In this document: in pieces, positions 7,026-30,730 of the stretch
Layout of the letters: each line of letters starts with the position of its first letter
Position numbering within the stretch: the stretch's first letter is position 1
Source: an uncultured Planctomycetales bacterium
GTDB lineage: Bacteria > Planctomycetota > MHYJ01 > JACPRB01
Direction: 5' to 3'
Length of the DNA stretch: 64,000 nt
Assembly: GCA_964526305.1 (NCBI GenBank)
Contig: CAZGKV010000012.1
Span: 8,131 to 72,130 of the forward strand
Made by a program: the position numbers and the translations under genes
Notes under the pieces: generated by a model
The model's database searches: none
Seen by the model: the letters and a program-made list of their open reading frames with translations, nothing else
Told to the model about the DNA's origin: nothing

Positions 7026-7681
7026 CTCCGGATGACGTGACGATGGCGGGTCGACTGGGACTCGCGCTCCTGCTGGGCGGGTTCATCGGGTTGGAGCGCG
7101 AAACGCACAGCCAAGCGGCCGGACTCCGGACGCACATGGTGGTCGCCGTCGCGTCCGCGTTGATCATGCTCGTCTCGATGCGGGTTGGAGGAGATACGGG
7201 TCGCGGAGATCCCGGCCGGATCGCGGCCCAGGTGGTCAGCGGCATCGGCTTTCTCGGGGCAGGCGCGATCTTCCGCTATGGAATGACCATCCGCGGCCTT
7301 ACGACCGCCGCCTGTCTGTGGGCGGCCGCGGGCATCGGATTGGCCTGCGGTCTGGGCTATTGGAAGGGCGCGGTGGCCACCACGGGGGGCGTGCTCATCG
7401 CCACGTTCCTCTTCGACAAGGTGGAACGCGCGTTTCTCCGCGAGAGCCAGTACAAGCGGTTCGTGATCAGCTCCAAGGACGGTCCCGATCTCATGCCCCG
7501 CGTCGATTCGGTCCTCGGCAAGCACGGCATCTCGATCAAGCAGCGGGGCCTGCATCAGGACTTCACCAGCAAGACCGTCCAGATCACGCTCACGGCCGCC
7601 GTACCCCAGTCGTGCAACCTGGAGGCTCTGATGCGCGAGCTCGACTCGATCCCCGAAGTCGAGAAGGTGGAAGTCGAATAG
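7022..7681 (+). CDS. mgtC: MgtC/SapB family membrane protein
   Basis: GGFIGLERE and GAGAIFRYG motifs, a 4-TM N-terminal half and an ACT-like C-terminal half. Start overlaps the preceding stop. Confidence 0.8.
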   Translation: MTPDDVTMAGRLGLALLLGGFIGLERETHSQAAGLRTHMVVAVASALIMLVSMRVGGDTGRGDPGRIAAQVVSGIGFLGAGAIFRYGMTIRGLTTAACLWAAAGIGLACGLGYWKGAVATTGGVLIATFLFDKVERAFLRESQYKRFVISSKDGPDLMPRVDSVLGKHGISIKQRGLHQDFTSKTVQITLTAAVPQSCNLEALMRELDSIPEVEKVEVE

Positions 7682-10910: not shown

Positions 10911-12290
10911 ATGGCGAAGCACGGACCCTTCGACGTCGTCGTTGTCGGCAGCGGACCCGCAGGATATGTCGCCGCCATTCGGGCGGGCCAGCTCGGACTC
11001 AAGACGGCCCTCGTCGAAAAGGACGGCAAGTACGGAGGCACGTGCCTCTGGCGGGGATGCATCCCAACGAAGGCCTTTCTGCACGACGCCTATCTCTACG
11101 ACCAGATCAAGAGCGCCTCGAGATACGGGATCGAAGTCGAGAAGGTGAGGGTCAACTGGGAGGGCGTCCTCAAACACAAGAACACGGTCGTCAAGAAGCT
11201 GGGGCTCGGGGTGGAGGGGCTCCTGAAGAAGAACAAGGTGCAATGCTTCGTGGGATTCGGTTCCGTCAAGAAGCCCGGTCTCGTGTCGGTGGGCGACGAC
11301 GAAATCCAGACGAAGAATATCGTCCTGGCTACGGGGTCCGACGTGAAGTGGTTCCCCGGGATGGAGCCCGACGGCAAGGGGATCATCACGAGCAACGAGG
11401 CCCTCGATCTCAAGGCGATCCCGAAGTCGATCGTCGTCATCGGCGCGGGCGCGGTGGGGATCGAATTCGCGTCCGTCTTCCACCGATTCGGCTCCGAAAC
11501 CACCCTGGTCGAGCTCCTGCCGCAAGTCGTCCCGCTGGAGGACGAGGAAATCGCGAGAGAGCTGGAGAGGATTCTGGCGAAGCGCGGGATGCGGATTCTC
11601 ACCGGGACCAAAGTCGAAGCGATCAAGCCGGGATATGAAGTCGTCGTCGCGCGCAACGGGAAATCGGAGACGATCAAGGCGGAAAAGGTGCTCGTTGCCG
11701 TGGGCCGAAAGCCGAATACGGAGAAGATCGGACTCGAGCACACCCGGGTGAAGACTGAACGCGGGTTTGTCAAGGTGAGTCCCGCGATGGAGACCGACGA
11801 GCCGGGGGTCTACGCGATCGGGGACATCGTCCCCACGCCGATGCTCGCGCACGTCGGGAGCGCGGAAGGGATCCTCGCAGTGACGCGCATCGCGGGGAAA
11901 GAGGTCCATCCCATCCTCTACGACCGAGTCCCGAGCGTCACCTACTGCGATCCGCAGGTCGCGAGCGTCGGACTCGGCGAGAAGAAGGCTCGCGAGCGCG
12001 GGTACGACGTCAAGGTGGGAAAGTTCCCCTTCTTGGGAATCGGAAAGGCGTCCATCGAGGGGGAGAACGAGGGGATGGTCAAGGTGGTCGGAGAGAGCAA
12101 GTACGGCGAGATTCTCGGCGTCCACATCCTTCACGCGCATGCGGGCGAGATGATCTCCGAGGCGGTCGCGGTGATGAACGGCGAGCTCACGGCGGAGGAA
12201 CTGGCGCACTCCATCCACCCCCATCCCACGCTCTCGGAGGCGGTCATGGAGGCGGCGCATGCCTATTACGGACAGGCGATCCATATCTGA
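10911..12290 (+). CDS. lpdA: dihydrolipoyl dehydrogenase
   Basis: VVGSGPAGY FAD motif, GGTCLWRGCIPTK redox-active disulfide, HAHP C-terminal motif, 459 aa. SD GGGGGAGG upstream. Confidence 0.92.
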   Translation: MAKHGPFDVVVVGSGPAGYVAAIRAGQLGLKTALVEKDGKYGGTCLWRGCIPTKAFLHDAYLYDQIKSASRYGIEVEKVRVNWEGVLKHKNTVVKKLGLGVEGLLKKNKVQCFVGFGSVKKPGLVSVGDDEIQTKNIVLATGSDVKWFPGMEPDGKGIITSNEALDLKAIPKSIVVIGAGAVGIEFASVFHRFGSETTLVELLPQVVPLEDEEIARELERILAKRGMRILTGTKVEAIKPGYEVVVARNGKSETIKAEKVLVAVGRKPNTEKIGLEHTRVKTERGFVKVSPAMETDEPGVYAIGDIVPTPMLAHVGSAEGILAVTRIAGKEVHPILYDRVPSVTYCDPQVASVGLGEKKARERGYDVKVGKFPFLGIGKASIEGENEGMVKVVGESKYGEILGVHILHAHAGEMISEAVAVMNGELTAEELAHSIHPHPTLSEAVMEAAHAYYGQAIHI

Positions 12291-12354
12291 CTTGGGTACA
12301 ATGTTCGGAGTCGATGAACAGGAGCCTTCACAAAGGAGTCCGGGAGGGCGGCGC

Positions 12355-12711
12355 ATGAAACGCTGGCTCGGACTGCTCGGAGTCTCGGCTTTCCTGGCCG
12401 CGGCGTGGTTCTATCAACCATCGATGCTCCCGAGTACCTGAACGATGAAGGTGGTGACGGGCCTGGGATGCCCGGGATGCGGACTCACGCGATCGGTGAC
12501 CTCGGCGGCGCACGCGAAGCTCGGCGAAGCGTTCCGATACCACATCTTTGGCCCGGCGATTCTCCTCGCGACGGTCGCGGCGTGGTTTGCGTTCTTGATC
12601 GGGCGGAAGGTACCGATCGACCATCCGCGGACCGCGAAGATCCTCCTGGGACTCGTCTTCGTGCTCATGGCCTATTGGATTGTCCGGATTCTCCTGGGAG
12701 CCGTCCCGTGA
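12355..12711 (+). CDS. DUF2752 family membrane protein interrupted by a single in-frame TGA (12439-12441) at the position of the first conserved Cys (Sec candidate or pseudogene)
   Basis: SD GGGAGGG 6 nt before ATG 12355. N-terminal TM helix (MKRWLGLLGVSAFLAAAWF), then ...LPST-TGA-TMKVVTGLGCPGCGLTRS plus two more TM helices. The two ORFs listed at 12259..12441 and 12445..12711 are in the same frame. Confidence 0.55.
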
Positions 12712-13568
12712 GCGAGGTCCAGGTCTCGCGCAAGCCGCCCTGGTTCAAGGTGCGTCTTCCCTCGGGCGAAGGGTATCGGACGACGCTCCAGGTCGCGCGC
12801 CAAAAGCGCCTCCACACGGTGTGCGAAGAGGCGCGGTGTCCCAACATCGCCGAATGCTGGGGGCGAAAGACCGCGACGTTCATGATTCTGGGCGACGTGT
12901 GCACGCGATCGTGCGGTTTCTGCGCCGTCAAAAGCGGAAGGCCGACCGAGCTCGATCTGAACGAGCCGATCCGGACGGCGCGGGCCGTACTGGAACTCGG
13001 GATCCGGCACGCCGTGATCACGAGCGTGAATCGAGACGAACTGGACGACGGCGGAGCGGGGATCTTCGCGGAAACGGTGCGGCAAATCCGCCGGGTCTCG
13101 CCCGGCACGCGGGTCGAGGTTCTCGTTCCCGACTTCCTGGGGAAGCGGGAAGCCCTACAGAAGATGTGGGAGGCGCGACCCGACGTCTTCGGCCACAACA
13201 TCGAGTGTGTCCCGCGCCTTCAGCGTGCCGTCCGAAGCGCCGCGAACTACGAGCGGTCCCTCTCCGTCCTCGAGGAAACGAAGAAGCAGGGGGACATGCT
13301 CGTCAAAACCGGGCTCCAGCTTGGACACGGCGAGTCGTGGGAGGAGATCCTCGCGGTGATGGAAGATCTGGTCCGCATTGGACTCGACATGTTCACGATC
13401 GGTCAGTATCTCCAGCCGACCCGAGAGCACCTTCCCGTCCGGCGGTGGTATACCCCGGCGGAATTCGCCTCGCTCCGCGAAGAGGCGCTTCGACGCGGAA
13501 TCCGATACTGCCAATCGGGTCCGTTGGTTCGAAGCTCCTATCGCGCCGAAGAACCGTTCGAACCGTAA
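12708..13568 (+). CDS. lipA: lipoyl synthase
   Basis: KPPWFKVRLP N-terminus, CEEARCPNIAECW and CTRSCGFC radical-SAM/Fe-S cysteine motifs. GTG 12708 overlaps the DUF2752 stop. Confidence 0.9.
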   Translation: MSEVQVSRKPPWFKVRLPSGEGYRTTLQVARQKRLHTVCEEARCPNIAECWGRKTATFMILGDVCTRSCGFCAVKSGRPTELDLNEPIRTARAVLELGIRHAVITSVNRDELDDGGAGIFAETVRQIRRVSPGTRVEVLVPDFLGKREALQKMWEARPDVFGHNIECVPRLQRAVRSAANYERSLSVLEETKKQGDMLVKTGLQLGHGESWEEILAVMEDLVRIGLDMFTIGQYLQPTREHLPVRRWYTPAEFASLREEALRRGIRYCQSGPLVRSSYRAEEPFEP

Positions 13569-13599
13569 ACGATTCTCCCCTCCGGGTTCTCCGGATTCC

Positions 13600-15327
13600 A
13601 TGGAGAATCTGTCCCTCGTCCGCCTGGTCTGCGCGCGTCGCGCGCGATTCGCCGCGGTCGCCGCGTCCTCCCTCCTCGTAGGCGCCCTGGGATGGGCCAC
13701 GGCCTTTTTCGTGCAGGCGGTGCTGGACCGTATGGGACAGCCACATATTCTATGGTCCGCCGCCGCGACTCTGGCCGTCGTCGCCGTACTCCGTTTCGCG
13801 TTGGCCGTCCTCCGTCAGCGGCTTCAGCTCGGACTGGCCTACGGGGTCGAGGGGGAGCTGTCCGAGGAGTTCCTCCGCCATGTCGGTCGTCTCGAAATGC
13901 GAGCGGTCGAGCAAACCACGCCGGGAGACCTGGTGCGTCGCCTGCGGGGGGTGGACTACCTGCGGACTCTCCTCGAAGACCGCGCGGCGGGGATCGTTTT
14001 CGATGCCTGCCTCGCTCTGGGGGCCCTGCTTCTCCTGATCCTCAGGTCCCCGGCGTGCGTGCCCTTCGTCGTCGTTGGCGCGATGCTCCCCGCTCTCGTT
14101 TCGCTCGTGGCTCGACGGGGGTCCACGGCGTCGTTCCGCGAAATCCAAGAGGCCGATGGGCGATACACCCAGGGAACGATGGAGGCGGTGCGCGGGGTTC
14201 GAGAGGTTCGCCTGCTCGGTGCGGAGGATTGGATGTTGGGGCGCCTCACGAAGGTTCGCACGGCCTGGACGGCGGCTCGACGCCGTCATGTGCTTCGAGC
14301 CGGCACCGCGCAATCCTTGTCCCTCCTTCTCACCACGCTGTCGGGTGGGGCTCTTCTCCTCTTCGGGGCGCTTCGCAGGATGAGTCCCGGAGAGCTGATG
14401 TTCGTTCTCACCCTGGCGGGAATGCTCGTCGCGCCGCTGGAGCAACTCGTTTCGACGGGGGTCGTCTTCTCGGAAGCGCGGGTGGCCCTGACCCGAATCG
14501 AGGAAGTGCTCCGACTTCCCGCGGAACCGCGCCTCCGGGGCTCCGACGTCCCCCGAGGAGGGATCCGTCTCGAAGGAATCGACTTCGCGTATCGGCCGGA
14601 CCGCCCGGTCTTGCGAAACCTGGATCTGGAGATCCCCGAGGGATCCACGGTGGCCATCGTGGGCGAGAGCGGCGCAGGAAAATCGACGCTCCTGGCGCTC
14701 TTGTCGGGGCTGTACGTTCCGGATGCGGGACGGATTCTCGTCGGGGGCACGGACCTTCGCGCCTTGCCCCTCGAGGCGTGGAGGCGCCGAATGGGAGCCG
14801 TCTTTCACGATCCGCGCTTCTTCGAGGGAACGGTGTTGGAGAACCTCCGTCTGGGCTGCGAATCCGCTTCCTTCGAGGACGTACGGAGGGCGGCTCGAAA
14901 GGCGTGCGCCGAGGAATTCATCTTGCAGCATCCCCGGAAGTACGAGGCGCCCCTTCTTCGAGACGGATCCGGATTCTCCGCCGGGCAGCTCCAACGGTTG
15001 GCGTTGGCCCGCGCCTTGGCGCGGGAGCCCGAGTTGCTGCTTCTCGACGAGGCGACGAACAATCTCGACGCCCGAACGGAGGCGGGGGTGCTCGGAGCGC
15101 TTGCGGAGGGGCGGACGCGAAGGACGACCGTCTTCGTCTCGCATCGACTGGCGAGCACGGTGCGCGCGGACCGGATCGTCGTCCTTCACGAAGGACGCGT
15201 GGCCGAGTCGGGGACGATTCGCGATCTCCTGGAGCGGGACGGTCTCTACCGCCGCCTCTGGCACCGTCAGCTTCCCGTAAACGAATCGATCGGGAGGGTT
15301 CTCTCGATCCCGGAGGTACGACGATGA
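13600..15327 (+). CDS. ABC transporter, fused permease/ATPase (lasso-peptide exporter, D protein, McjD-like)
   Basis: Six-TM N-terminal domain, Walker A GESGAGKST, signature FSAGQLQRLALARAL, Walker B LLLLDEATNNLD. Stop overlaps the start of the lasso B gene. Confidence 0.85.
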   Translation: MENLSLVRLVCARRARFAAVAASSLLVGALGWATAFFVQAVLDRMGQPHILWSAAATLAVVAVLRFALAVLRQRLQLGLAYGVEGELSEEFLRHVGRLEMRAVEQTTPGDLVRRLRGVDYLRTLLEDRAAGIVFDACLALGALLLLILRSPACVPFVVVGAMLPALVSLVARRGSTASFREIQEADGRYTQGTMEAVRGVREVRLLGAEDWMLGRLTKVRTAWTAARRRHVLRAGTAQSLSLLLTTLSGGALLLFGALRRMSPGELMFVLTLAGMLVAPLEQLVSTGVVFSEARVALTRIEEVLRLPAEPRLRGSDVPRGGIRLEGIDFAYRPDRPVLRNLDLEIPEGSTVAIVGESGAGKSTLLALLSGLYVPDAGRILVGGTDLRALPLEAWRRRMGAVFHDPRFFEGTVLENLRLGCESASFEDVRRAARKACAEEFILQHPRKYEAPLLRDGSGFSAGQLQRLALARALAREPELLLLDEATNNLDARTEAGVLGALAEGRTRRTTVFVSHRLASTVRADRIVVLHEGRVAESGTIRDLLERDGLYRRLWHRQLPVNESIGRVLSIPEVRR

Positions 15328-16019
15328 CACACGTGGCCGAACACGTCCGGTGGCGGAAGATCGACGGCGCCGTCGTGATTCTGGATCTCCGATCCGAGAA
15401 GTACTTCGTCCTAGACGCGATCGGCACGGCAATCTGGGAAGGGATCGCCGAGGGGGTCGACTCCCAGGCCGAGATCTCCGCGCTGGCGACTCGATACGGC
15501 GTATCCCGAGAGCGCGTGGCGGAGGACGTTCGAGTCTTCGTGGATCGGGCCAAGGTGCAAGGACTCCTCGCGACTCGGCCGGCCGAGCCGCCGCCTCGGC
15601 TCCGTGCCGGCGCGAGAGAGGGGCGCCCCGCGTGTCCGACGCTTCGCGCGTGGTGGAGCCTCCTGGCGACGGCGCACCATCTCGCCCGTCACGGCTTTGC
15701 GGCGACGTACGGCGCGTACGAAGCGCTACCGGTGCCCGACGCCGCTGCGGACGTCGACGAGCGCCTCGCGGAGGCCGTCGCCGCCTTCGCCAAGGCCGAG
15801 AATGTTTTCCACATGAAGCGCGCGCCCGAGGACTGCGTCCCCCGATCGCTCGCCCTCTTCCGTTTCCTGCGTTCGGTGGGGATTCCCGTCGAGCATTGCA
15901 TCGGCGTTCGCCGCTTTCCGTTCGGGGCGCATGCTTGGGTGGAGTTCCGCGGCGAGATCGTCCACGACAGCCTTTCGACGACCACGAACTATGGGACCCT
16001 GGCGCGAATCGGGGTTTGA
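15324..16019 (+). CDS. lasso peptide biosynthesis B protein, fused B1 (PqqD-like RRE) and B2 (transglutaminase-like Cys protease)
   Basis: N-terminal PqqD-like region (WRKIDGAVVILDLRSEKYFVLDAIGTAIWEGI). C-terminal region with catalytic Cys (EDCVPRSLALFRFL) and the HAWVEF His motif typical of McjB-like leader peptidases. SD GGAGGT upstream. Confidence 0.85.
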   Translation: MTHVAEHVRWRKIDGAVVILDLRSEKYFVLDAIGTAIWEGIAEGVDSQAEISALATRYGVSRERVAEDVRVFVDRAKVQGLLATRPAEPPPRLRAGAREGRPACPTLRAWWSLLATAHHLARHGFAATYGAYEALPVPDAAADVDERLAEAVAAFAKAENVFHMKRAPEDCVPRSLALFRFLRSVGIPVEHCIGVRRFPFGAHAWVEFRGEIVHDSLSTTTNYGTLARIGV

Positions 16020-16048
16020 AGGCTTTTCTTACTTACGGGAGGAATGCC

Positions 16049-16195
16049 ATGACCGAAGAGTATCGCACACCCGAGATCGTGAACATGGGCGAGGTGACGG
16101 AACTGACGGGGGGCGGAAGCACGCCTCTCGCGGACATCCCGGGCGATCCGACGGGCGGATATAACCGCGGGAAACTCGAGGTGGAACTCGACTGA
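16049..16195 (+). CDS. lasso peptide precursor (A peptide), 48 aa
   Basis: MTEEYRTPEIVNMGEVTELTGGGSTPLADIPGDPTGGYNRGKLEVELD. Leader fits YxxPx(L/I)xxxGxxxxxTxG with Thr at -2. Predicted core GGSTPLADIPGDPTGGYNRGKLEVELD, with Gly1 and Asp8 as ring partners. SD GGGAGGA upstream. Confidence 0.8.
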   Translation: MTEEYRTPEIVNMGEVTELTGGGSTPLADIPGDPTGGYNRGKLEVELD

Positions 16196-16202
16196 CGGAT
16201 GT

Positions 16203-16233
16203 GGGGGAAGGGGCCCTCAGGGTCCTTTCCCCC
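16203..16233 (+). terminator. strong GC hairpin (14-bp stem incl. 2 G-U pairs, 3-nt loop) immediately after the lasso precursor gene; candidate partial terminator/attenuator
   Basis: GGGGGAAGGGGCCC-tca-GGGTCCTTTCCCCC, beginning 8 nt after the precursor stop. No U-tract. Confidence 0.5.
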
Positions 16234-16249
16234 TCCGGGGGAGATCGTC

Positions 16250-17968
16250 ATGAAAAGATTCTTCGGCCGCCTGCCTGCGTCGGAAACGGGATCTTCGGGT
16301 CCTTGCGTTTCGCACCGGGGGACCATCGCCAACCGAGAGGCGCTTCTCGAGGAGGCACGGCGTCGCGGAGAACCGATCGGGGAGGTGGGGGATGGCGATC
16401 TCCTTCTCCGGGCCTACCGGTGGTGGGGGGACGGATTGCAGGCTCGCGTTCTCGGAGAATACGCCGTGGCGATCGTGGACGAGCGAGCCGGCAGGGCCTT
16501 TCTTACTCACGACGGACTCGGCGTGATGCCGCTCTTCTACGGCCGGCACGGGGACGATTTCCTCTTCGGCTCGCATCTCGAAGATCTCGTCGCGCTTACG
16601 GGCGTCGGGGAACTCGACGAGGAATACCTCGCGGACGTCCTCTCCCTCGGAGTTCACTTGGGGGAGCGTACTCCCTATCGCCATCTCCGCCAGCTCCTCC
16701 CGGGCACCAGTCTGCGGTGGGAGGGGGGGCGCGTGTTCGTGCGGAAGACCTGGGATCTCTCCTCCGTGCGGTCGATCGAAGGGATTTCCGACGAGGAGTG
16801 CGAGGAGCGCTTGCGCTCCCTCCTGCGCGAAGGAGTGACGGCGGCTCTTCGGGCCGATGGACCGGTTTGGAGCGAGCTCTCCGGCGGCCTCGACTCCTCG
16901 TCCATCGTGTGCACCGCGGCGCACGCGGGCACGCGGCTGGACACCCTCTCCTTTACCACTCGCTCGCGCACGGCGGACGAGCAGAAATGGATTCGGGCGG
17001 TGGTGGAGAGATACGACCTTCCGTGGCACTCGATCGATTTCGACCGGTGTCCGCCGTTCTCCGAGATGCCGGACCGTTTCTTCGCGGTACCGAGCTCGGT
17101 CCTTTCCGTCGCCGGGCTTTATCGGAAGTACGAGGAGCTGCTTTCGGGGCACGGAGTGCAGGTCCTTCTGACGGGAACCGGAGGCGATCAGGTCTTCTGC
17201 GGAGATTACCCCGCTCCGGACCACCTGGCGGATCAGCTCTCTCTCGGTCGTATGCATCGGCTGATTCGAGGCGTACGCTCGTGGAGCGAAGGAAGCGACG
17301 AAAAGCGATCGTTCCTCCATGTCCTCCTGCGGGGCGCGATCCAACCCCGCCTGGATCATGCGCTGGATCGAAATCTCCGGAAGCGGGAACGCCCGGGCGT
17401 CCCGCCTTGGCTCCGCGCGGACTACGCGGGACGGATGATGCTGGAGGATCGAAGCCGGCGGAGAGTCGCTCCCCGGTGCCGGTCCGTGGGACAGCAGGGA
17501 CTCCTGGAACGCCTCTGGCCGGCGCATCTCGTGGCTACGGGACGGGCTCACTACGTCCGAGGCTTCGAGTTTCGGTACCCGCTGCTCTACCGCCCCCTCG
17601 TCGAGTTCCTGTTCGCGCTCCCGCACGATCGGAAGGCGGGACCGGACGAAGACCGGAGCCTCCAGCGTCGCGCGCTTCGCGGGATTCTTCCGGAGACGGT
17701 CCGGACACGGAGGGGGAAGATGGGCCCTCAACGCCTATATCACGACGGCTTGGCGAAGAGTCGGGAGTGGCTCGAGGCGCTGACCGACCGGCCGAGGGTC
17801 GTCGAGCGCGGATACGTGGACGCGGAGCGATGGCGCGAAGCCGTGGCCCGGATGCGGCACGGCGCGACGCACGGTCTTCCGCTCTTCCTCGGGACGGCGA
17901 CGCTCGAGGTGTGGCTCCGGGGCTTGGAGTCGGCGCCCGTTTTCGTTGACACTCCCTCCGCGAGGTGA
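16250..17968 (+). CDS. lasso peptide cyclase (asparagine synthetase B-like, C protein)
   Basis: SGGLDSS PP-loop motif and AsnB-like fold, 572 aa, immediately downstream of the precursor. Confidence 0.85.
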   Translation: MKRFFGRLPASETGSSGPCVSHRGTIANREALLEEARRRGEPIGEVGDGDLLLRAYRWWGDGLQARVLGEYAVAIVDERAGRAFLTHDGLGVMPLFYGRHGDDFLFGSHLEDLVALTGVGELDEEYLADVLSLGVHLGERTPYRHLRQLLPGTSLRWEGGRVFVRKTWDLSSVRSIEGISDEECEERLRSLLREGVTAALRADGPVWSELSGGLDSSSIVCTAAHAGTRLDTLSFTTRSRTADEQKWIRAVVERYDLPWHSIDFDRCPPFSEMPDRFFAVPSSVLSVAGLYRKYEELLSGHGVQVLLTGTGGDQVFCGDYPAPDHLADQLSLGRMHRLIRGVRSWSEGSDEKRSFLHVLLRGAIQPRLDHALDRNLRKRERPGVPPWLRADYAGRMMLEDRSRRRVAPRCRSVGQQGLLERLWPAHLVATGRAHYVRGFEFRYPLLYRPLVEFLFALPHDRKAGPDEDRSLQRRALRGILPETVRTRRGKMGPQRLYHDGLAKSREWLEALTDRPRVVERGYVDAERWREAVARMRHGATHGLPLFLGTATLEVWLRGLESAPVFVDTPSAR

Positions 17969-17984
17969 GAAACTCCCCGTCCGA

Positions 17985-18533
17985 ATGATTCCCTTCGTGC
18001 CGCGCGAGATGTTCCTCACCAAGGGCGTCGGAAGGCACAAGGAGAAACTCGCCAGTTTCGAAGAGGCGCTTCGCAACGCTCAGATCGCGCGGTTCAATCT
18101 CGTCCACGTCTCCAGCATCTTTCCCCCGCACTGCAAGCTTCTCTCCCCGAACAAGGGGCTTCGCAAGCTGCAAAGCGGCCAGGTCGTCGCGGTCGTCATG
18201 GCTCGGTCGGAGACCAACGAGAAGAATCGGCTGATCGCGACGTCCATCGGAGTCGCGATTCCTTCGAACAAGGACCAGTACGGCTACCTCTCCGAACACC
18301 ACAGTTTCGGCGAGACCGAGGAACAAGCGGGGGAGTACGCGGAGGACCTGGCGGCCTCGATGCTGGCCACCATCCTCGGGCTCGACTACGAGCACGGAGC
18401 GACTTGGGATCAGCGCGAGCAGCAGTGGAAGATGAGCGGACAGATCGTCAAGACGATGAACATCACCCAATCGGCGATCGGGACGGCGGGGCTGTGGACG
18501 ACGACGATCGCCTCGGCCGTTCTCATTCCCTAG
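17985..18533 (+). CDS. pdaD: pyruvoyl-dependent arginine decarboxylase
   Basis: MIPFVPREMFLTKGVG N-terminus and a Ser-containing self-cleavage region, about 180 aa. Confidence 0.8.
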   Translation: MIPFVPREMFLTKGVGRHKEKLASFEEALRNAQIARFNLVHVSSIFPPHCKLLSPNKGLRKLQSGQVVAVVMARSETNEKNRLIATSIGVAIPSNKDQYGYLSEHHSFGETEEQAGEYAEDLAASMLATILGLDYEHGATWDQREQQWKMSGQIVKTMNITQSAIGTAGLWTTTIASAVLIP

Positions 18534-18536
18534 GGC

Positions 18537-19580
18537 ATGAAACAGAAGAACTCGCATCCGTTCACGCAGCATCCCGTCGTGCCGCTGGTTCCGGGTCGGA
18601 TGACGGCGGCCGAATATCTCCGCGCCTGTGCAGACCTTTCCTTCCAGGCGCGAAGCCTCGGGACCGCGTTCGAGATCTGGCAGAAGGCGCTGCAGGACGA
18701 TACGACCATCTTCCTCGGACTCTCGGGTGCGATGACGCCCGCGGGGCTGAGGAAGGTGATCGTCCACCTCCTCGAGAATCGACTGATCGACGTCCTGGTG
18801 ACGACGGGAGCCAACGTCTTTCACGATCTCCACGAGACCTTGGGCAAGCATCACTACAAATGCCACCCGGCGACGGACGACAAGCTGCTCCGCCGGCACT
18901 ACTTGGATCGGATCTACGACGTTCTCGGGAACGAGAAGGAATACGGCCAACTCGATCGGCTGATCTCGAAGGTGGCGGCCTCGCTCCCCAAGCGTCCCTA
19001 CTCTACGCGCGAATGGTTTCACGAGTTCGGCGCGGTGCTGAATTCGATGAAGAAGGACCAGGGGATCGTCACGGCCGCCTACGAGGCGGGCGTGCCGATT
19101 TACGCCCCCGCCCTCGGGGATTCGTCCTACGGCATCGGCATGGCCGCGTACAAAGAGTCTCGGGACTTCCTGCTCCATCCGATCAAGGACGTGCGCGAGA
19201 CCGCCGAGATCGCGGCGGAGGCTCCGCGAACCGGGATCGTGTTCATCGGCGGGGGGACGCCCAAGAACTTCACGCAGCAAACCGAAGTGACGGCGGAGTA
19301 CATGGGCTACGAGATGCAGGGACACAAGTACTGCATCCAGATCACCACCGACGCCCCCCACTGGGGAGGATTGTCGGGCTGTACCTTCGAGGAGTCCACC
19401 TCGTGGGGCAAGATCCACTTCGAGGCCGAGAAGATCGCCGTCTACTCCGATGCGACGATTTCGCTCCCGCTCCTGGCGTGCGGCCTCGCGGAGGTCCGCG
19501 CCCACCGGTTCCGACCCTCGCGTCCCAAGTTCACGTTCGGCGAGGAACTTCGGATCACGCGCGAGAAGCTCCGCAACTAG
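18537..19580 (+). CDS. deoxyhypusine synthase-like protein (homospermidine/polyamine biosynthesis)
   Basis: DHS-family motifs (GLSGAMTPAGLRK, VTTGANVFHD, GGGTPKNF), 347 aa. Confidence 0.8.
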   Translation: MKQKNSHPFTQHPVVPLVPGRMTAAEYLRACADLSFQARSLGTAFEIWQKALQDDTTIFLGLSGAMTPAGLRKVIVHLLENRLIDVLVTTGANVFHDLHETLGKHHYKCHPATDDKLLRRHYLDRIYDVLGNEKEYGQLDRLISKVAASLPKRPYSTREWFHEFGAVLNSMKKDQGIVTAAYEAGVPIYAPALGDSSYGIGMAAYKESRDFLLHPIKDVRETAEIAAEAPRTGIVFIGGGTPKNFTQQTEVTAEYMGYEMQGHKYCIQITTDAPHWGGLSGCTFEESTSWGKIHFEAEKIAVYSDATISLPLLACGLAEVRAHRFRPSRPKFTFGEELRITREKLRN

Positions 19581-19582
19581 CG

Positions 19583-20443
19583 ATGGAAGGCCGATGGCAC
19601 TTCCTCGGCATCCCGCGGGACTACGCCCGATACGAAACCGCCCGATTCGTGGTCGTGCCGGCGCCTTGGGATCGGGCGGGGTCCGGGACACGGTACGGCC
19701 CGAGCGCCATCCTCGAGGCGTCGCATCAGATCGGGCGCTTCGACGAGGAACTCGGATTCGAGCCGTGGAAGGCCGGAATCCACACTCTTCCTCCCGCGGC
19801 GACGGCTCGCGATCCGGAGGGAACGCTGAGTCGGCTCGCAGACCTCGTGGAAAAAGAGGTGCGGGCGGGCAAGTTTCCGATCGTGCTCGGGGGGGATCGC
19901 CTTCTGACGGAGGGATCTCTCGCGGGAGTGGCCCGAGTCCATGCGAAGATCTCGGTGCTGCACCTGGACGCGCACGGCCGATCGGACGGTGGAAAGGGAA
20001 TGTCCGCGATCGCGGAGAGAATCGTCCAGGTGGGAGTCCGGACGGTCGCCGAGCCGTGTACTCCCTCCAAACGGATTCAGACATGGCTCGTGCGCCAGGA
20101 ACGGGACGTTCGCGCGCTGGTTCCCAAGATGCTCGAAGGATTGGGGGAGATGGTGTATCTCTCCCTGAATCTCCACGCGTTGGATCCCTCCATCGTGCCG
20201 GGGGTACGCGTCCCCGTGCCGGGAGGCTTGGGATGGTGGGACGCGTTGGAGATTCTCCGCGCCGTGACGCAGGCCAGAAACGTCGTGGCGGCGGACGTGG
20301 TCGAGCTTTGCCCGCTTCCCGACTCCGTCGTGAGCGAGTTCGCGGCGGCGCAGTTGGTCTATCGGCTGATGGGGTATGTCGTGCACAAGGACACTCAAAA
20401 GTCCACGGTCCGGCGAGTTGTCCGCTCGAGGGGGAAGCGGTGA
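19583..20443 (+). CDS. speB: agmatinase / arginase-family ureohydrolase
   Basis: Arginase-fold Mn-binding motifs (LGGDRL, LHLDAHGRSD, SLNLHALDPS). Confidence 0.8.
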   Translation: MEGRWHFLGIPRDYARYETARFVVVPAPWDRAGSGTRYGPSAILEASHQIGRFDEELGFEPWKAGIHTLPPAATARDPEGTLSRLADLVEKEVRAGKFPIVLGGDRLLTEGSLAGVARVHAKISVLHLDAHGRSDGGKGMSAIAERIVQVGVRTVAEPCTPSKRIQTWLVRQERDVRALVPKMLEGLGEMVYLSLNLHALDPSIVPGVRVPVPGGLGWWDALEILRAVTQARNVVAADVVELCPLPDSVVSEFAAAQLVYRLMGYVVHKDTQKSTVRRVVRSRGKR

Positions 20444-21240
20444 GCGTCCGAAGCCCCGCCGCCGCCGGTACGTTTTATCCGAGCCGGGCCGAGGAACTGC
20501 GCGCGGAGATGGCCCGGTGTCTGCCCGCCGGGGAACGCGCTGCGGCACTGGCGGCCATCGTGCCCCATGCCGGTTATCGATACTCCGGTCGCGTGGCCGG
20601 CGAGGTGTTCGCCCGAATCGAGATTCCCCGTGACGTCGTGATTCTCGCCTTCCACCATCGCGGGCGCGGAGCGGACGTGGCCGTTTCCTCCAGCCACGAG
20701 TGGCTCACGCCGCTCGGGAGATCGCCCGTGAACGAAGGCTTGGCCCGTCGCATCGTCGAAACGTGCCCGGGAGCGAGCTTCGACGATGAGGGACATCGGG
20801 AGGAGCATTCTGCCGAAGTGCAGCTCCCCTTCTTGCAGTTCCTCCGGAGCGACGTTCGGATCGTCCCGGTGGCGTTGAGCCTTGGACTGGAAGAGGAACG
20901 AAGACTGGCAGATTTCGGCCGCGCGCTCGCCGGCGTTCTGGACGATGAGCTCGTGATCGGATCGACGGATCTCAACCATTACGAGAATCACGAGCGGACG
21001 CTGGAAAAGGACCGCAAGGTCATCGATCCCATGGAGCGCCTCGACGGGACGGAATTGGCGCGGGCGATCGAGGCCCATCGCGTCTCGATGTGCGGATTCG
21101 CGCCGGCGATCGCGACGCTGGCGTTCGCCCGAGCGAAGGGCGCGACGAAGGCGGAAACCGTGGCGCACCGAACCAGCGGCGACGCCTCCGGGGATTTTCA
21201 GCGATGCGTGGGGTACGTGGGGATGATTATTCGTCGGTGA
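20440..21240 (+). CDS. Memo-like protein (AmmeMemoRadiSam system protein B family)
   Basis: AAGTFYP N-terminal motif, His-rich metal site (HAGYRYSG), about 266 aa. GTG overlaps the speB stop. Confidence 0.75.
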   Translation: MSVRSPAAAGTFYPSRAEELRAEMARCLPAGERAAALAAIVPHAGYRYSGRVAGEVFARIEIPRDVVILAFHHRGRGADVAVSSSHEWLTPLGRSPVNEGLARRIVETCPGASFDDEGHREEHSAEVQLPFLQFLRSDVRIVPVALSLGLEEERRLADFGRALAGVLDDELVIGSTDLNHYENHERTLEKDRKVIDPMERLDGTELARAIEAHRVSMCGFAPAIATLAFARAKGATKAETVAHRTSGDASGDFQRCVGYVGMIIRR

Positions 21241-21243
21241 AAA

Positions 21244-23013
21244 ATGTGGAAGCTGAAGCGGACGCACACGTGCGGTGAACTCCGGGCCGAGCAATCGGGG
21301 CAAGAGGTGATCTTGGACGGCTGGGTCGACGCCCGCCGGAATTTCGGCAACTTGCTTTTCATCGATCTGCGGGACCGCTACGGCAAGACGCAGATCCTCT
21401 TCAGTCCCGACCGGGATCCCGCCCTCCTGGAGCACGCCTCTCGAGTCGGGAAGGAATGGGTGATCGCCGTGCGCGGCGTCGTGCGACGGCGCGACGCGGA
21501 CACCGTGAATTCCAAGATCCCCACGGGGGAGATCGAAGTGGACGCCCTCGAACTCGAGATCGTCAACGAAGCGAAGACGACGCCGTTCGAAATCTCGGAA
21601 CGGATCACCGTCTCCGAAGAGATGCGGCTCCAGCATCGCTATCTCGATCTGCGCCGGCCGTGGATGCAGCGCAACATCATCGTGCGGAGCAAGATCGTCC
21701 ATGCGATCCGCCACTACATGGACGGCCAGGGATTCCTCGACATCGAGACTCCCTACATGGTGAAGTTCACCCCCGGAGGGGCGCGGAATTTTCTCTGTCC
21801 CAGCCGTCTCTATCCGGGTCGGTTCTTTGCCATGGCCGAATCGCCGCAGATCTTCAAGCAGCTCTTCATGGTGAGCGGCATGGACAAGTACTACCAGATC
21901 GCGCGCTGTTTCCGCGACGAGGACCTCCGGGCGGATCGCCAGCTCGAATTCACCCAACTCGATCTCGAGATGTCCTTCGTTCAGCCCGAGGACGTGATGG
22001 GCGTGATCGAAGGATGCGTCGTGGAGGTGTGGAAAAAGGTGGCGGGGGTCGAGGTTCCCCGGCCGTTTCCGCTCATCAGCTACGAAGAGTCGATGCGGCT
22101 CTACGGCACCGACAAGCCGGACCTTCGCTTCGAGCTGAGGATTTGGGACGCGTCGGAGGCGGTCCGCGCGAGCGGATTCAAGGTCTTTGCGGGGACGGTC
22201 GCCGCGGGGGGCGTCGTACGCGGACTCACCGCTCCGGGTTGCGGCTCGTGGTCGCGGAAGCAGGTCGAGGAGCTGGAGAGCTACGTCAAAGGGATCGGCG
22301 CCATGGGACTGGTGAGCCTCAAGGTCGAAGGAGGAAAGCTGGCGGGAGGGAGCGCAAAATTCCTCGGAGATCCGGAAGTCCGGGGAATCCTGGGAGTCTC
22401 CGGGGCCAAAGACGGAGATCTCTTGCTGCTCATTGCGGATGAAAGGGACAAGGCGGCCACGATCCTCGGCGGATTGCGACTGCTCCTGCGGGACCGCCTC
22501 TCGCTCGTGAAATCGAACGCCTTCCAATTCTGTTGGGTCGTGGACTTCCCGATGTTCGAGATCGGGGAGGACGGGAGCGTCGGCGCGAAGCACCACCCGT
22601 TCACCTCGCCGAAGGACGAGTTCCTCGACCTTCTCGAAAAGGAGCCGATGAAGGTCAAGGCGAAGGCGTACGACCTCGTGCTCAATGGCGTGGAGCTGGG
22701 GGGCGGTTCCATCCGGATTCATCGGCGCGACGTCCAGCAACGGATTTTCAAGCTCCTAGGGCTCTCGGAGGAATACGCGCGCGACCGTTTCGGCTTTCTC
22801 CTGGAGGCGTTCGAGTACGGCGCTCCTCCCCACGGCGGGATTGCGCTGGGGTTGGACCGACTGGCGATGCTCGTCCTGGGTCTCGACAACATCCGCGACG
22901 TGATTACGTTTCCCAAGACCCAATCGACGGTGTGCCTGATGACGGGGGCGCCGGGGAGCGTGACGGAGAAGCAGCTCAAGGAACTCCACATCCGAGTGGT
23001 GGATCTCCCATGA
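21244..23013 (+). CDS. aspS: aspartyl-tRNA synthetase
   Basis: Class II aaRS motifs (FRDEDLRADRQLEFTQLD, GGGSIRIH, ALGLDRL) and an OB-fold N-terminus, 589 aa. Confidence 0.92.
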   Translation: MWKLKRTHTCGELRAEQSGQEVILDGWVDARRNFGNLLFIDLRDRYGKTQILFSPDRDPALLEHASRVGKEWVIAVRGVVRRRDADTVNSKIPTGEIEVDALELEIVNEAKTTPFEISERITVSEEMRLQHRYLDLRRPWMQRNIIVRSKIVHAIRHYMDGQGFLDIETPYMVKFTPGGARNFLCPSRLYPGRFFAMAESPQIFKQLFMVSGMDKYYQIARCFRDEDLRADRQLEFTQLDLEMSFVQPEDVMGVIEGCVVEVWKKVAGVEVPRPFPLISYEESMRLYGTDKPDLRFELRIWDASEAVRASGFKVFAGTVAAGGVVRGLTAPGCGSWSRKQVEELESYVKGIGAMGLVSLKVEGGKLAGGSAKFLGDPEVRGILGVSGAKDGDLLLLIADERDKAATILGGLRLLLRDRLSLVKSNAFQFCWVVDFPMFEIGEDGSVGAKHHPFTSPKDEFLDLLEKEPMKVKAKAYDLVLNGVELGGGSIRIHRRDVQQRIFKLLGLSEEYARDRFGFLLEAFEYGAPPHGGIALGLDRLAMLVLGLDNIRDVITFPKTQSTVCLMTGAPGSVTEKQLKELHIRVVDLP

Positions 23014-23518: not shown

Positions 23519-25036
23519 ATGACGATACGGATCGCGCTCCTGCTTGCCCTGGGCACCGCCGGAGGGACCCAGGAATCGAAGGGGCAGAGCTTCGACGAAA
23601 GGATCGAAGCGGAGCTGAAGAAGGCCGGAGTCCGGCCCGCCCCCCTCTGCGACGACGCCGATTTTCTCCGTCGTGTCTCGCTCGATCTCGCGGGCGTCAT
23701 CCCCACCCCCGAAGAGGTCGTGGCATTTCTGGACGATCGGAACTCCCAGAAGCGCTCGAAGAAGATCGACCAACTCCTGGCGGGAGCCGAGTTTGCCGAT
23801 CACTGGGCCCGAATCTGGATGGTCTTCCTCATCGGGACGCCGTTGGGCGACGCCGACCTCGGACGCGCGTGGTTCCTCGAGTACCTTCGGGATTCCCTCG
23901 CAAGAAACCAGCGATATGACCGTGTGGTGCGCGAGATCCTCGCCGCCGAAGGGAATCTCGACGAGAACAAGGCAGCCGTCTATCTCTATCGCTGGCAGGA
24001 CGCCGCCGACCAGACGAGCGCCGCGGTCCGCCACTTTCTCGGAGTTCAGCTCCGCTGCGCCCAGTGCCACGACCATCCCTTCGATTCGTGGACTCAGAGG
24101 GATTTCTGGGCGACGGCGGCCTTTTTCGCCCGAGCGACGCGCGGCTACAGCGAGGAAGAGATCGTGATGGAGCCGACCTACGGCTTCGAGATCGGTCGCT
24201 TGAGTTTGACCGAGGCCGAAGAAGGCGAAGTCGACTTGCCCGAAAGCCGGCATGCCATGAAACTTCCTCCCCGGTTCCTCGGCGAGAAGACGGATACGAA
24301 TCCGAAGCATCGCCGAAAGGCGCTCGCGGATTGGATGACATCGCCGAAGAACCCCTGGTTCGCGAAGGCTACCGTCAACCGCATCTGGGGGATTCTCCTC
24401 GGCCGCGGATTCGTTCATCCGGTGGACGATTTCGGGACTTCGAAGACCCCCGTCTACCCGGAAGCCCTGAACCGGCTCGCGGAGGAGTTCGTCCGATCCG
24501 GTTTCGACCTCCGCGCCTTGATTCGTAGGGTCTTGAATTCGCGGACCTATCAACGCGCTTCGCGACCGGCCGACTCCAAGCATCCGTTCGCCGCGGCGGA
24601 GCGCCGGCGAATGAGCCGACATCAGTATTTCACCTCCGTAGCCCGCGCCGGAGATTTCGACTTCACGTTCCCGGTCGAGATCGAGGAACGGGACCCCGCC
24701 ATGGGGCCGGCGACGGAGATGAAGGATTTCAAGGAAGACTATCTCTATCAGATCCAGCGCGCGAACTCGCCGGTCGAGAAGACGCTCCTTCGCATGAACG
24801 GATCGCTCGTCATCGACGCGATCGTCAGCGGCAAGCGGCTCCCGAAGACGCTCGAGACTTGCGATACGAACGAGAAGCGGATCGAATGGCTCTTCCTCGC
24901 CTCGCTCTCCCGACGACCGACGGTGGGAGAGCGTGACGTGTTCCTCGACTACCTCGACGGCAAGGAGGAGTATCCCGCCTATGAGGACATCCTCTGGACG
25001 CTCCTAAACTCCACGGAATTCGGAGTGAACCGATGA
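23519..25036 (+). CDS. DUF1549/DUF1553 domain protein (Planctomycete-type secreted protein)
   Basis: Signal peptide, LDLAGVIPTPEE (DUF1549) and LGVQLRCAQCHDHPFD (DUF1553) motifs. Confidence 0.8.
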   Translation: MTIRIALLLALGTAGGTQESKGQSFDERIEAELKKAGVRPAPLCDDADFLRRVSLDLAGVIPTPEEVVAFLDDRNSQKRSKKIDQLLAGAEFADHWARIWMVFLIGTPLGDADLGRAWFLEYLRDSLARNQRYDRVVREILAAEGNLDENKAAVYLYRWQDAADQTSAAVRHFLGVQLRCAQCHDHPFDSWTQRDFWATAAFFARATRGYSEEEIVMEPTYGFEIGRLSLTEAEEGEVDLPESRHAMKLPPRFLGEKTDTNPKHRRKALADWMTSPKNPWFAKATVNRIWGILLGRGFVHPVDDFGTSKTPVYPEALNRLAEEFVRSGFDLRALIRRVLNSRTYQRASRPADSKHPFAAAERRRMSRHQYFTSVARAGDFDFTFPVEIEERDPAMGPATEMKDFKEDYLYQIQRANSPVEKTLLRMNGSLVIDAIVSGKRLPKTLETCDTNEKRIEWLFLASLSRRPTVGERDVFLDYLDGKEEYPAYEDILWTLLNSTEFGVNR

Positions 25037-26304
25037 CGTGCGACTGTTCGCGCCGAGATCTCCTCAAAGTCGGCTCCGGGGGCCTGCTCGCCATGCTCTT
25101 CTCCGGCAAGCTCGGCTCCGTCTTCGGGCAGGAGCAGGCGGCGCGGGCGAAGGCCTGCATCTTTCTCTTTATGTACGGCGGCCCGAGCCACATCGACACG
25201 TGGGATCCGAAGCCCAAGAGCCCCTGCGGGGGGACCTTCAGGCCGATCCGTACCAAGGCGGGATATGAGATCTGCGAGCACATGCCCGAGATCGCCAAAG
25301 TCTCGACAAAGATCTCGATCATCCGCTCGATGACCTCGAAAGAAGTCGATCACGGTCGTGGCGCGTATTATCTTCGCACCGGATATCGGCCTCAGGAAAG
25401 CGTCGAGCATCCGCCTCTGGGCTCGATCTTCGCGAAGGAGCTCGCGAGAGACGACGCGGACGTCCCCCCGTTCGTCACGATCTCGCCTGGATTCGATACC
25501 GGATTGGGTGCCGGCCTCCTCGGCGAAGTCTGGTCTCCCTTCATCCTCGACACGCCCGGCGAGGTCCCATCGACGCTCGCGTGCCCCGACATCCTCAGCG
25601 AAGAGCGGCAGTCCGACCGACTCCGGCTCCTCGAGGAGTACGAGAAGCGTTTCGGCGAACAGCGCATGGAGGGCGAGGCGGCGTTAGCACGATCTCTGCA
25701 CCAGAAGGCGGCCCGGTACAGGAAGGGCCCCCTTCGTCGCGCGTTGGATCTCTCTCGGGAGGAGGATTCCGTGCGAGAGGCGTACGGCAAGAACGACGGC
25801 GGGTACACGCCCTTCGGACAATCCTGCCTCACCGCCCGCCGACTCGTAGAATCGGGCGTCAAGTTCGTCGAGATTACCCACCAGGGATGGGACACCCACG
25901 AGAACAATTTCGATCTCACGCGCGACCTGTGCCGCGAGACGGATGCGGGATTCGCCGCGCTCGTCCGGGATTTGGACCGACGCGGGGTCCTGGACTCCAC
26001 GCTGATCGTGTGGGCCGGTGAATTCGGCCGAACTCCCAACATCAACGCCCAAGGCGGACGGGACCATCACGGAGATGTCTTCTCAATCGCGCTGGCGGGC
26101 GGCGGGATCCGCGGGGGCCTCGTCGTGGGCGCAAGCGACCCCGACGGTTCGCAGGTCCAGCATCGAGCGGTCACCTTCCCCGAAGTGATGGCGACCGCAG
26201 CCGCGCTGGCAGGCCTCAATCCCGAGAAAGAGTATTCCACTCCCGAAGAGCGCCCCATCAAGCTCGTTGACGACGCCCGGCCCATCCGCGAGCTGATCTC
26301 GTAG
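25033..26304 (+). CDS. DUF1501 domain protein (sulfatase-like, Tat signal)
   Basis: SRRDLLK twin-arginine motif, GGPSHIDTWDPKP, C-terminal GGRDHH. Start overlaps the DUF1549 gene stop. Confidence 0.8.
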   Translation: MTCDCSRRDLLKVGSGGLLAMLFSGKLGSVFGQEQAARAKACIFLFMYGGPSHIDTWDPKPKSPCGGTFRPIRTKAGYEICEHMPEIAKVSTKISIIRSMTSKEVDHGRGAYYLRTGYRPQESVEHPPLGSIFAKELARDDADVPPFVTISPGFDTGLGAGLLGEVWSPFILDTPGEVPSTLACPDILSEERQSDRLRLLEEYEKRFGEQRMEGEAALARSLHQKAARYRKGPLRRALDLSREEDSVREAYGKNDGGYTPFGQSCLTARRLVESGVKFVEITHQGWDTHENNFDLTRDLCRETDAGFAALVRDLDRRGVLDSTLIVWAGEFGRTPNINAQGGRDHHGDVFSIALAGGGIRGGLVVGASDPDGSQVQHRAVTFPEVMATAAALAGLNPEKEYSTPEERPIKLVDDARPIRELIS

Positions 26305-30637: not shown

Positions 30638-30730
30638 TCCACGCCTTCGGAATTCTCGCAACATTTCACTAGATCATCCTGGGCTGCGCGCGCCACGGAG
30701 ATGGAGCCCAAGATTCAAGGTGAGAAATTC

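Follow-up and report, generated by a model that had tools for sequence, protein, structure and literature searches.

A four-gene cluster of the lasso peptide type was found in a 64,000-nucleotide (nt) stretch of contig CAZGKV010000012.1 (the window, meaning the whole stretch of DNA analyzed) from an uncultured Planctomycetales bacterium. The genes, D (13600-15327), B (15324-16019), A (16049-16195), and C (16250-17968), are intact, co-directional on the forward strand, and tightly packed, with the gene D stop overlapping the gene B start (ATGA) and gene A lying 30 nt past gene B and 55 nt ahead of gene C. Gene A, an open reading frame (ORF) of 48 codons plus a TGA stop codon (16193-16195) with the translation MTEEYRTPEIVNMGEVTELTGGGSTPLADIPGDPTGGYNRGKLEVELD, is interpreted here, with a probability of about 0.82, as the structural gene of a class II lasso peptide in a complete, horizontally acquired D-B-A-C cluster. 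The precursor is real, previously unannotated, and uncharacterized, and it is a further example of a well-known kind of lasso peptide.

The ORF is preceded by a Shine-Dalgarno-like GGGAGG (16037-16042, recognized by direct reading of the sequence) with a 6-nt spacer to the ATG, and its G+C content per codon position (0.65, 0.47, and 0.76) matches the coding pattern of the neighboring genes. The identical 48-amino-acid (aa) ORF is also present among the gene calls of independent assemblies from JGI (JGI gene callers) and Logan. An in-frame TTG located 33 nt upstream of the ATG accounts for a database entry in which the protein has 59 aa; this start has no comparable ribosome-binding site, and its effect would be limited to a longer leader. 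The precursor splits into a 21-aa leader, MTEEYRTPEIVNMGEVTELTG (16049-16111), ending in TELTG, and a 27-aa core, GGSTPLADIPGDPTGGYNRGKLEVELD (16112-16192). The leader contains Tyr-17, Pro-14, Ile-12, Gly-8, Thr-2, and Gly-1, in the canonical register of Tyr-17, Pro-14, a hydrophobic residue at -12, and Thr-2 (PMC10368454). The general features of lasso precursors that can be read from sequence were all found, namely, Thr-2 (in rare cases Ile or Val in lasso precursors), a first core residue that is Gly, Ala, Ser, or Cys (here Gly1) together with an acidic residue at core position 7, 8, or 9 (here Asp8), and a YxxPxL-type motif from -17 to -12. A preliminary description had proposed a lasso precursor with this leader motif, and the register -17/-14/-12/-2 was upheld. 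The string printed in that description was one Gly too short (Gly-1 had been dropped), and its residue numbers (Y5, P8, I10, G14, T20 at -2, and G22 at +1, with D8, D12, Y17, R19, and K21 in the core) fit the true sequence.

In the six-frame translation of the window, the motif Y..P.[LIVM]...G.....T.G occurred once, against an analytic expectation of 0.007, and it was absent from all of 200 first-order Markov resamples. A leave-one-out profile, built from positions -17 to +9 of 23 related precursors with the window ORF excluded, was searched against the 969 stop-to-stop segments of the window; gene A scored 35.0 bits (E = 3.8e-10), and the runner-up segment scored 5.0 bits. Spurious ORFs are common in GC-rich genomes (138 ORFs of at least 30 aa in 18 kb), and on that account the ORF might have arisen by chance in intergenic DNA of high G+C content, with the true precursor located elsewhere. 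The low motif expectation, the profile score, and a homologous core at the same position in the closest relative described below all argue against such a chance frame and leave it a negligible probability.

Gene B encodes a 231-aa protein in which a B1 domain (PqqD-like, residues ~8 to 76) is fused to a B2 domain (transglutaminase-like Cys protease, residues ~101 to 221). The protein matched Pfam PqqD with 50.7 bits (residues 11 to 76) and Transglut_core3 with 67.3 bits, and it passed the NCBIfam model lasso_biosyn_B2 (65.3 bits; cutoff, 33). The N-terminal domain matched the leader-binding protein TbiB1 (PDB 5v1u; E = 5e-8), and an N-terminal RRE fusion is the common orientation in B proteins (PMC11420955). 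Cys171 and His203 were invariant among 16 aligned B homologues, 15 of which also had Asp215, and a Cys-His-Asp triad is what is expected of lasso leader peptidases (PMC11420955). Gene C encodes an asparagine-synthetase-like putative lasso cyclase of 572 aa (Pfam Asn_synthase, 147 bits; GATase_7), whose best NCBIfam match was NF033535 lass_lactam_cya, the cyanobacterial-type lasso isopeptide cyclase (222.4 bits). The SGGLDSS ATP-pyrophosphatase motif was invariant in 30 gene C homologues. The protein starts with MKRF and is without Cys2, the nucleophile that is a feature of true glutamine-hydrolyzing AsnB. Gene D encodes an ABC half-transporter of 575 aa (Pfam ABC_membrane, 73 bits; ABC_tran, 112 bits), predicted to be an exporter and immunity pump; among solved structures, it is closest to ABCB-type exporters and the core of the bacteriocin transporter PCAT1 (E = 1e-79). 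The cluster contains no tailoring enzyme, isopeptidase, or kinase gene. The radical-SAM gene lipA upstream was considered as a tailoring enzyme and rejected; it encodes a LIAS_N domain, follows lpdA, and has a 76% identical orthologue in cluster-free relatives. In total, the locus has all the general hallmarks of a lasso cluster that are open to testing in the sequence.

Used as a query against a collection of 5.8 billion proteins, the 48-aa precursor retrieved only itself from a word index that is blind to short divergent peptides, and a PDB search with the precursor gave no meaningful match. Relatives were therefore sought through the cyclase, whose homologues at 38% to 59% identity are numerous, and 160 loci around cyclase homologues were fetched. 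The conservation counts given here refer to the 24 distinct precursors adjoining cyclases 38% to 100% identical to gene C; L006, L007, L011, and other loci that yielded no precursor under relaxed motifs were left out. Thr-2 is present in all 24 precursors and Gly1 in 23. The loss of Thr-2 in homologous precursors was what the preliminary description had named as evidence against its proposal, and the alignment of related precursors revealed the opposite. The Ile that it had noted in the Leu position is an ordinary variant, since relatives carry I, V, M, or L at -12.

The closest relative, L163 (Logan contig SRR30681710), has a cyclase 59% identical to that of the window, the same B-A-C order, and Ile at -12. 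Its precursor consists of the leader MKKKAYQPPAIISVGSAIDLTK and the core GGNSPVADIPGNPSGGYNRGWGGPDPDDGDKQPADDAPQKPGQD; core residues 1 to 20 are identical to those of the window at 15 of 20 positions, and the leaders are identical at 6 of 19, so that this part of the core is conserved more strongly than either the leader or the cyclase. The L163 cleavage junction, in which DLTK is followed by GGNSPVADIPGNPSGGYNRG, has Lys-1, retains Asp8, and has Asn12. Because Lys occupies -1 in L163, the cleavage register is fixed inside the GGG of the window precursor. Cleavage one residue later (core from G23, with a 7-residue ring) was considered and rejected; it breaks the Thr-2 and Tyr-17 registers, and residue -1 of L163 is Lys rather than Gly. 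In a further relative, L083 (JGI Ga0209415_10026080; cyclase, 51% identity), the precursor is located after gene C and reads PLTE followed by GADTLVAELPGDPSGGYYKPYAVPETETER, with Glu8 and with GADTLVAELPGDPSGGYYKPY as the start of the core past PLTE.

An acidic residue is found at core position 8 in 19 of the 24 precursors, and the remaining 5 have one at position 9. This conservation, together with that of Gly1, supports the Gly1-Asp8 ring put forward in the preliminary description, and an isopeptide bond between these residues is predicted. Asp12 could also be imagined as the acceptor, closing a 12-residue macrolactam; it lies within the conserved PGDP segment and is also found in L083. L163, however, removes Asp12 as a candidate because it keeps Asp8 and has Asn12, and only 2 of the 24 precursors have an acidic residue at position 12. 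To our knowledge, no 12-residue lasso ring has been reported. The characterized rings in the literature consulted comprise 7 to 9 residues, with Gly1-Asp7 in huascopeptin and rings of 8 and 9 residues in caulosegnins (PMC13352647). Ring closure on Asp12 is therefore very improbable, in line with its earlier ranking as the less likely acceptor.

The core is without Cys and thus has no Cys pair for a disulfide, which assigns the predicted peptide to class II. Loss of one H2O from the linear core (2727.3351 Da) gives a calculated monoisotopic mass of 2709.3246 Da for the predicted product, whose net charge would be about -3. Its predicted layout is a ring (residues 1 to 8), a loop (~9 to 16), a plug region (Y17-N18-R19), and a variable acidic tail (21 to 27, KLEVELD). 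The motif G-x-x-[ST]-x-[LV]-A-[DE]-[IL]-P-G-x-P-[ST]-G-G-Y is common to the cores of the window, L163, and L083, and the alignment points to a conserved 20-residue module (putative ring 1 to 8, loop [IL]PGxP[ST]GG, and Y-[NY]-[RK]) to which a variable tail is attached. The tails past residue 20 are unrelated, with 7 residues in the window, 24 in L163 (acidic and Pro-rich), and 10 in L083. L163 retains Y17-N18-R19-G20, and in L083 Y17 is accompanied by a basic residue at position 19. Since these residues are conserved and K21 is not, Y17 and R19 are the better plug candidates, so that K21 drops out of the three originally suggested. The core had also been described as long; it is above the typical size of lasso peptides, but it lies within the characterized range and close to the median predicted core length of the family (27.5).

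The lack of conservation after residue 20 would also be expected if the tail were trimmed to give a mature product shorter than 27 aa, or if the peptide were cyclized between Gly1 and Asp8 but remained an unthreaded, branched-cyclic lariat. Host carboxypeptidases are documented to truncate lasso tails down to the lower steric lock (PMC13352647). On the other hand, threaded products are the general outcome of lasso cyclases acting with B partners, the conserved Y17-N18-R19 is spaced suitably from the ring, and no tail protease is encoded in the cluster. An unthreaded or shortened product is thus considered unlikely, and a full-length threaded product is preferred.

Several relatives differ from the window precursor in the length and ending of the core. 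The precursors at L094:304-510, L010:6900-7076, L096, L009:4709-4894, and L163:627-827 have predicted cores of 44 to 54 aa, far above the 33 aa of the longest characterized lasso peptide. Their C-terminal extensions are rich in Pro or strongly acidic, and the net charge after residue 20 reaches -13. At two loci, a precursor with the core GGTDGVGEGTIGSYYNPEPYPSPSPSPSPSPEPPSPSPSPSPSPRSGR is followed directly by a family-2 glycosyltransferase gene (L164:5858-6100 and 6224-7132; L165:3473-3791 and 3785-4693), an arrangement suggestive of O-glycosylation of the Ser/Pro-rich tail of a lasso peptide. Many precursors of a distant clade, mostly from Acidobacteriota, have a conserved C terminus of MMMMCL, NPQCL, or SPCL (L046, L051, L140, L075, L068, L076, L153, and L018, with the precursor downstream of the cyclase), and the terminal Cys-Leu may be recognized for some further modification. 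Loci with two to four tandem precursor genes (L026, L042, L048, L050, L073, L100, L102, L130, L135, L147, L161, and L162) are also mostly from Acidobacteriota and have cyclases of ~28% to 34% identity; their precursors have Ile or Val at -2 and conserved acidic ends such as AYDLDE and FDE, matching the Ile/Val(-2) precursor class (PMC10368454).

A five-step pathway is proposed for the window cluster. The 48-aa precursor would be translated from the ATG at 16049, a step for which the ORF, the ribosome-binding site, and the independent gene calls were observed. By analogy with work on TbiB1/TfuB1 and McjB, the PqqD-like domain of B would bind the leader via Tyr-17, Pro-14, and Ile-12. The transglutaminase-like domain (Cys171-His203-Asp215) would then cut after Gly-1, guided by Thr-2, and free Gly1. 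The cyclase would adenylate the side chain of Asp8 and join it to the Gly1 amine, forming the 8-residue macrolactam around the pre-threaded tail, with Y17-N18-R19 most likely positioned at the ring as the steric lock and residues 21 to 27 (KLEVELD) forming a free acidic tail. Finally, the ABC half-transporter would export the product and probably protect the producer. The underlying lasso biochemistry has been reviewed and studied previously (PMC11420955, PMC10368454, PMC6784204). What was observed for the window consists of the ORF with its leader and core architecture, the enzyme domains with their catalytic motifs, and the conservation across the family of Gly1, Thr-2, and an acidic residue at core position 8.

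The cluster occupies a 4.4-kb segment (13569-17984, forward strand) between lipA (12708-13568, forward strand), which ends 32 nt before the cluster genes, and a gene for pyruvoyl arginine decarboxylase (PvlArgDC; 17985-18533, forward strand), which starts 16 nt after them. In the Planctomycetota relatives L168 and L169 (aspartyl-tRNA synthetase [AspRS], 75% identity), the orthologues of lipA and PvlArgDC (76% to 78% identity) are neighbors, with a gap of 15 nt in L168, and the gene order past lipA is arginine decarboxylase, deoxyhypusine-synthase-like, Memo, and aspS. No homologues of D, B, A, or C were found within ±10 kb of the lipA/PvlArgDC loci in L168 and L169. The adjacency of lipA and PvlArgDC in these cluster-free relatives indicates that the 4.4-kb lasso cluster is an insertion into a conserved housekeeping block. 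The nearest cyclases are those of metagenome-assembled genomes (MAGs) of other phyla (Pseudomonadota, Eremiobacterota/Vulcanimicrobiota, and deltaproteobacterial lineages), and the nearest named relatives of the window AspRS (21244-23013; 58% to 81% identity) are all Planctomycetota MAGs. The cluster genes (13600-17968) have G+C contents at the first, second, and third codon positions (GC1, GC2, and GC3) of 0.72 to 0.74, 0.49 to 0.51, and 0.77 to 0.81, and those of the flanking housekeeping genes (10911-12290, 18537-19580, and 21244-23013) are 0.60 to 0.65, 0.39 to 0.43, and 0.82 to 0.86. The origin of the nearest cyclases and the higher GC1 of the cluster genes fit horizontal acquisition.

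The same junction has different contents in related genomes. It is empty in L168 (6637-8093), holds one opposite-strand gene of the tRNA-synthetase family (PF00579) in L169 (5240-7846), and in L167 (1-7152; AspRS, 81% identity) contains a cluster of the fatty-acid/aryl-polyene type with radical-SAM, ApeI-like dehydratase, two ketosynthase, ketoreductase, and acyl carrier protein genes. Within this Planctomycetota lineage, the lipA/PvlArgDC junction has the appearance of a hot spot for insertions. No mobile-element genes and no convincing target-site duplication were found flanking the insert. The sole exact repeat flanking it is a perfect 15-nt direct repeat, CGAAGAGGCGCTTCG, at 13478-13492 and 18059-18073, inside the coding regions of lipA and the arginine decarboxylase gene, and it is probably due to chance. 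Downstream of the cluster, a polyamine-type string (17985-21240) comprises genes for the pyruvoyl arginine decarboxylase, a deoxyhypusine-synthase-like protein, an agmatinase/arginase-fold protein, and a Memo-like protein; related Planctomycetota also have this string ahead of aspS, although L168 and L169 lack the agmatinase gene. A PSCyt2/PSD1 (DUF1549/DUF1553) protein gene followed by a DUF1501 protein gene (23519-26304), a pair that we take to be typical of Planctomycetota, fits a host of this phylum. Farther downstream, a gene for a Ser/Thr protein kinase with C-terminal TPR repeats (27431-30091) and one for an NHL-repeat protein (30701-32875) are unrelated to the lasso cluster.

Several observations weigh against the interpretation of this locus as a lasso cluster or limit its details. 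Precursor residues 5 to 23 matched the NCBIfam model NF033521 lasso_leader_L3 with 17.3 bits (E = 0.0036), just under the cutoff of 19, and gene C, at 222.4 bits, is far below the cutoff of 525 for lass_lactam_cya, the sole lasso cyclase model that it matched. Because both are under the NCBIfam cutoffs, the precursor and the cyclase, as judged from these scores, belong to no curated subfamily. The near miss with lasso_leader_L3 leaves the precursor without a public name, and the score indicates that it is related to this model though not nameable by it; among the relatives, L087 passes (23.4 bits) and L163 falls below the cutoff (15.6 bits). The usual gene order in the relatives is (D)-B-C-A, with the precursor 170 to 280 nt after the cyclase gene; unlike in most relatives, the precursor lies between B and C in the window, L163, and L009. 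The five precursors with an acidic residue at position 9 imply that an 8-residue ring is not strictly obligatory for the enzymes of the family. Neither threading nor the identity of the plug residues can be derived from sequence, and both are predictions here. Finally, a scan of 12200-18700 found neither a sigma-70-like promoter nor a canonical terminator at the cluster, so that transcription of the cluster may rely on read-through from lipA or may not occur at all.

The last point bears on whether the cluster is a silent or decaying remnant of horizontal transfer, with an ORF that yields no product in this host. The absence of a promoter-like site would agree with such a remnant, as would the lineage-specific insertion, which is absent from related Planctomycetota, and the GC1 values that set the cluster apart from the flanking housekeeping genes. 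Against decay, the four genes are intact with tight spacing or overlap, the precursor has a good ribosome-binding site, the catalytic residues of B and C are preserved, and the identical cluster was recovered from independent assemblies. In addition, the co-directional spacing behind lipA and ahead of the arginine decarboxylase gene permits read-through transcription. A remnant without a product is accordingly given a low probability, and a functional precursor gene is favored. A GC-rich hairpin (16196-16237, forward strand; 14-bp main stem, 16203-16233) was predicted between the precursor stop codon, which it directly follows, and the ribosome-binding site of the cyclase gene, with a centroid energy of -33.7 kcal/mol and a z score of -2.4 against dinucleotide shuffles, 6 of 200 of which were equally good. 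The hairpin is without a following U-tract, a weaker hairpin is found in L163, and the structure may act as a transcript stabilizer or attenuator. An Rfam scan of the whole window gave no RNA family match.

The window cluster leaves the understanding of lasso biosynthesis unchanged and would not surprise a specialist, given that thousands of such lasso clusters have already been predicted by genome mining. In the searched literature, no characterized lasso peptide from Planctomycetota was found, with survey-type mentions only, and the core is without a characterized relative. It is possible, though rather doubtful, that the peptides of the window, L163, and L083 represent an uncharacterized lasso subfamily in which the conserved 20-residue fold module is joined to a hypervariable tail, with the window peptide as the first lasso peptide of Planctomycetota and the lipA locus as a hot spot. 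If this were true, the tails would be functional modules that serve solubility, targeting, or as sites of further modification; the appendages are mostly acidic or Pro-rich, and an (SP)n tail occurs together with a glycosyltransferase in at least one relative. The 24 precursors, with a conserved module and variable tails of up to ~34 residues, form a natural experiment on the C-terminal cargo tolerated by a lasso cyclase, a property relevant for lasso engineering, and the 4.4-kb cluster without tailoring genes is an easy target for heterologous expression.

Among known systems, the therbactin/fusilassin-type clusters (TbiA/TbiB1/TbiB2/TbiC; TfuA/B1/B2/C) resemble the window cluster in the YxxPxL-type motif at -17 to -12 with Thr-2, the TbiB1-homologous leader-binding domain, the Asn-synthetase-like cyclase, and a class II product without a disulfide. 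They differ in their split B1 and B2 proteins, whereas the window has a fused 231-aa B, the order D-B-A-C, a planctomycete host, and an unrelated core. The microcin J25 (McjABCD)/capistruin-type clusters share with the window the minimal set of four genes without tailoring enzymes, the cyclase C, the ABC exporter D, the fused B, and an 8-residue ring starting from Gly1, which is predicted in the case of the window. The ring of microcin J25 is Gly1-Glu8. In contrast to these clusters, the window has a YxxPxL-type leader, an Asp rather than a Glu acceptor, gene A between B and C, and a dissimilar core. The fused B of microcin J25-type clusters combines an RRE with a Cys-His-Asp protease (PMC11420955), and proteobacterial leaders are described as being without the YxxPxL motif (PMC6784204). 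As judged from its genes, the window cluster combines the YxxPxL leader and TbiB1-like domain of actinobacterial and firmicute split-B systems with the fused B and ABC exporter of the microcin J25 type, two sets of features that are usually treated in reviews as belonging to separate groups (PMC6784204, PMC11420955).

In core length, the window peptide is comparable to the longest characterized lasso peptides, pandonodin (33 aa, with an 18-aa tail) and achromonodin-1 (30 aa, with a 20-aa loop) (PMC13352647); its 27 aa and the 44 to 54 aa predicted for its relatives fall in or beyond this size class. Pandonodin, however, belongs to class IV and has a disulfide in its tail, whereas the window core has no Cys and a short, acidic tail (~7 to 8 residues past the plug), and the sequences are unrelated. 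The uncharacterized metagenomic clusters L163 and L083 are the nearest relatives found and share the core motif, with the B-A-C order also present in L163, but their unrelated tails of 24 and 10 residues set them apart from the 7-residue tail of the window, as do the position of the L083 precursor after C and its Glu8.

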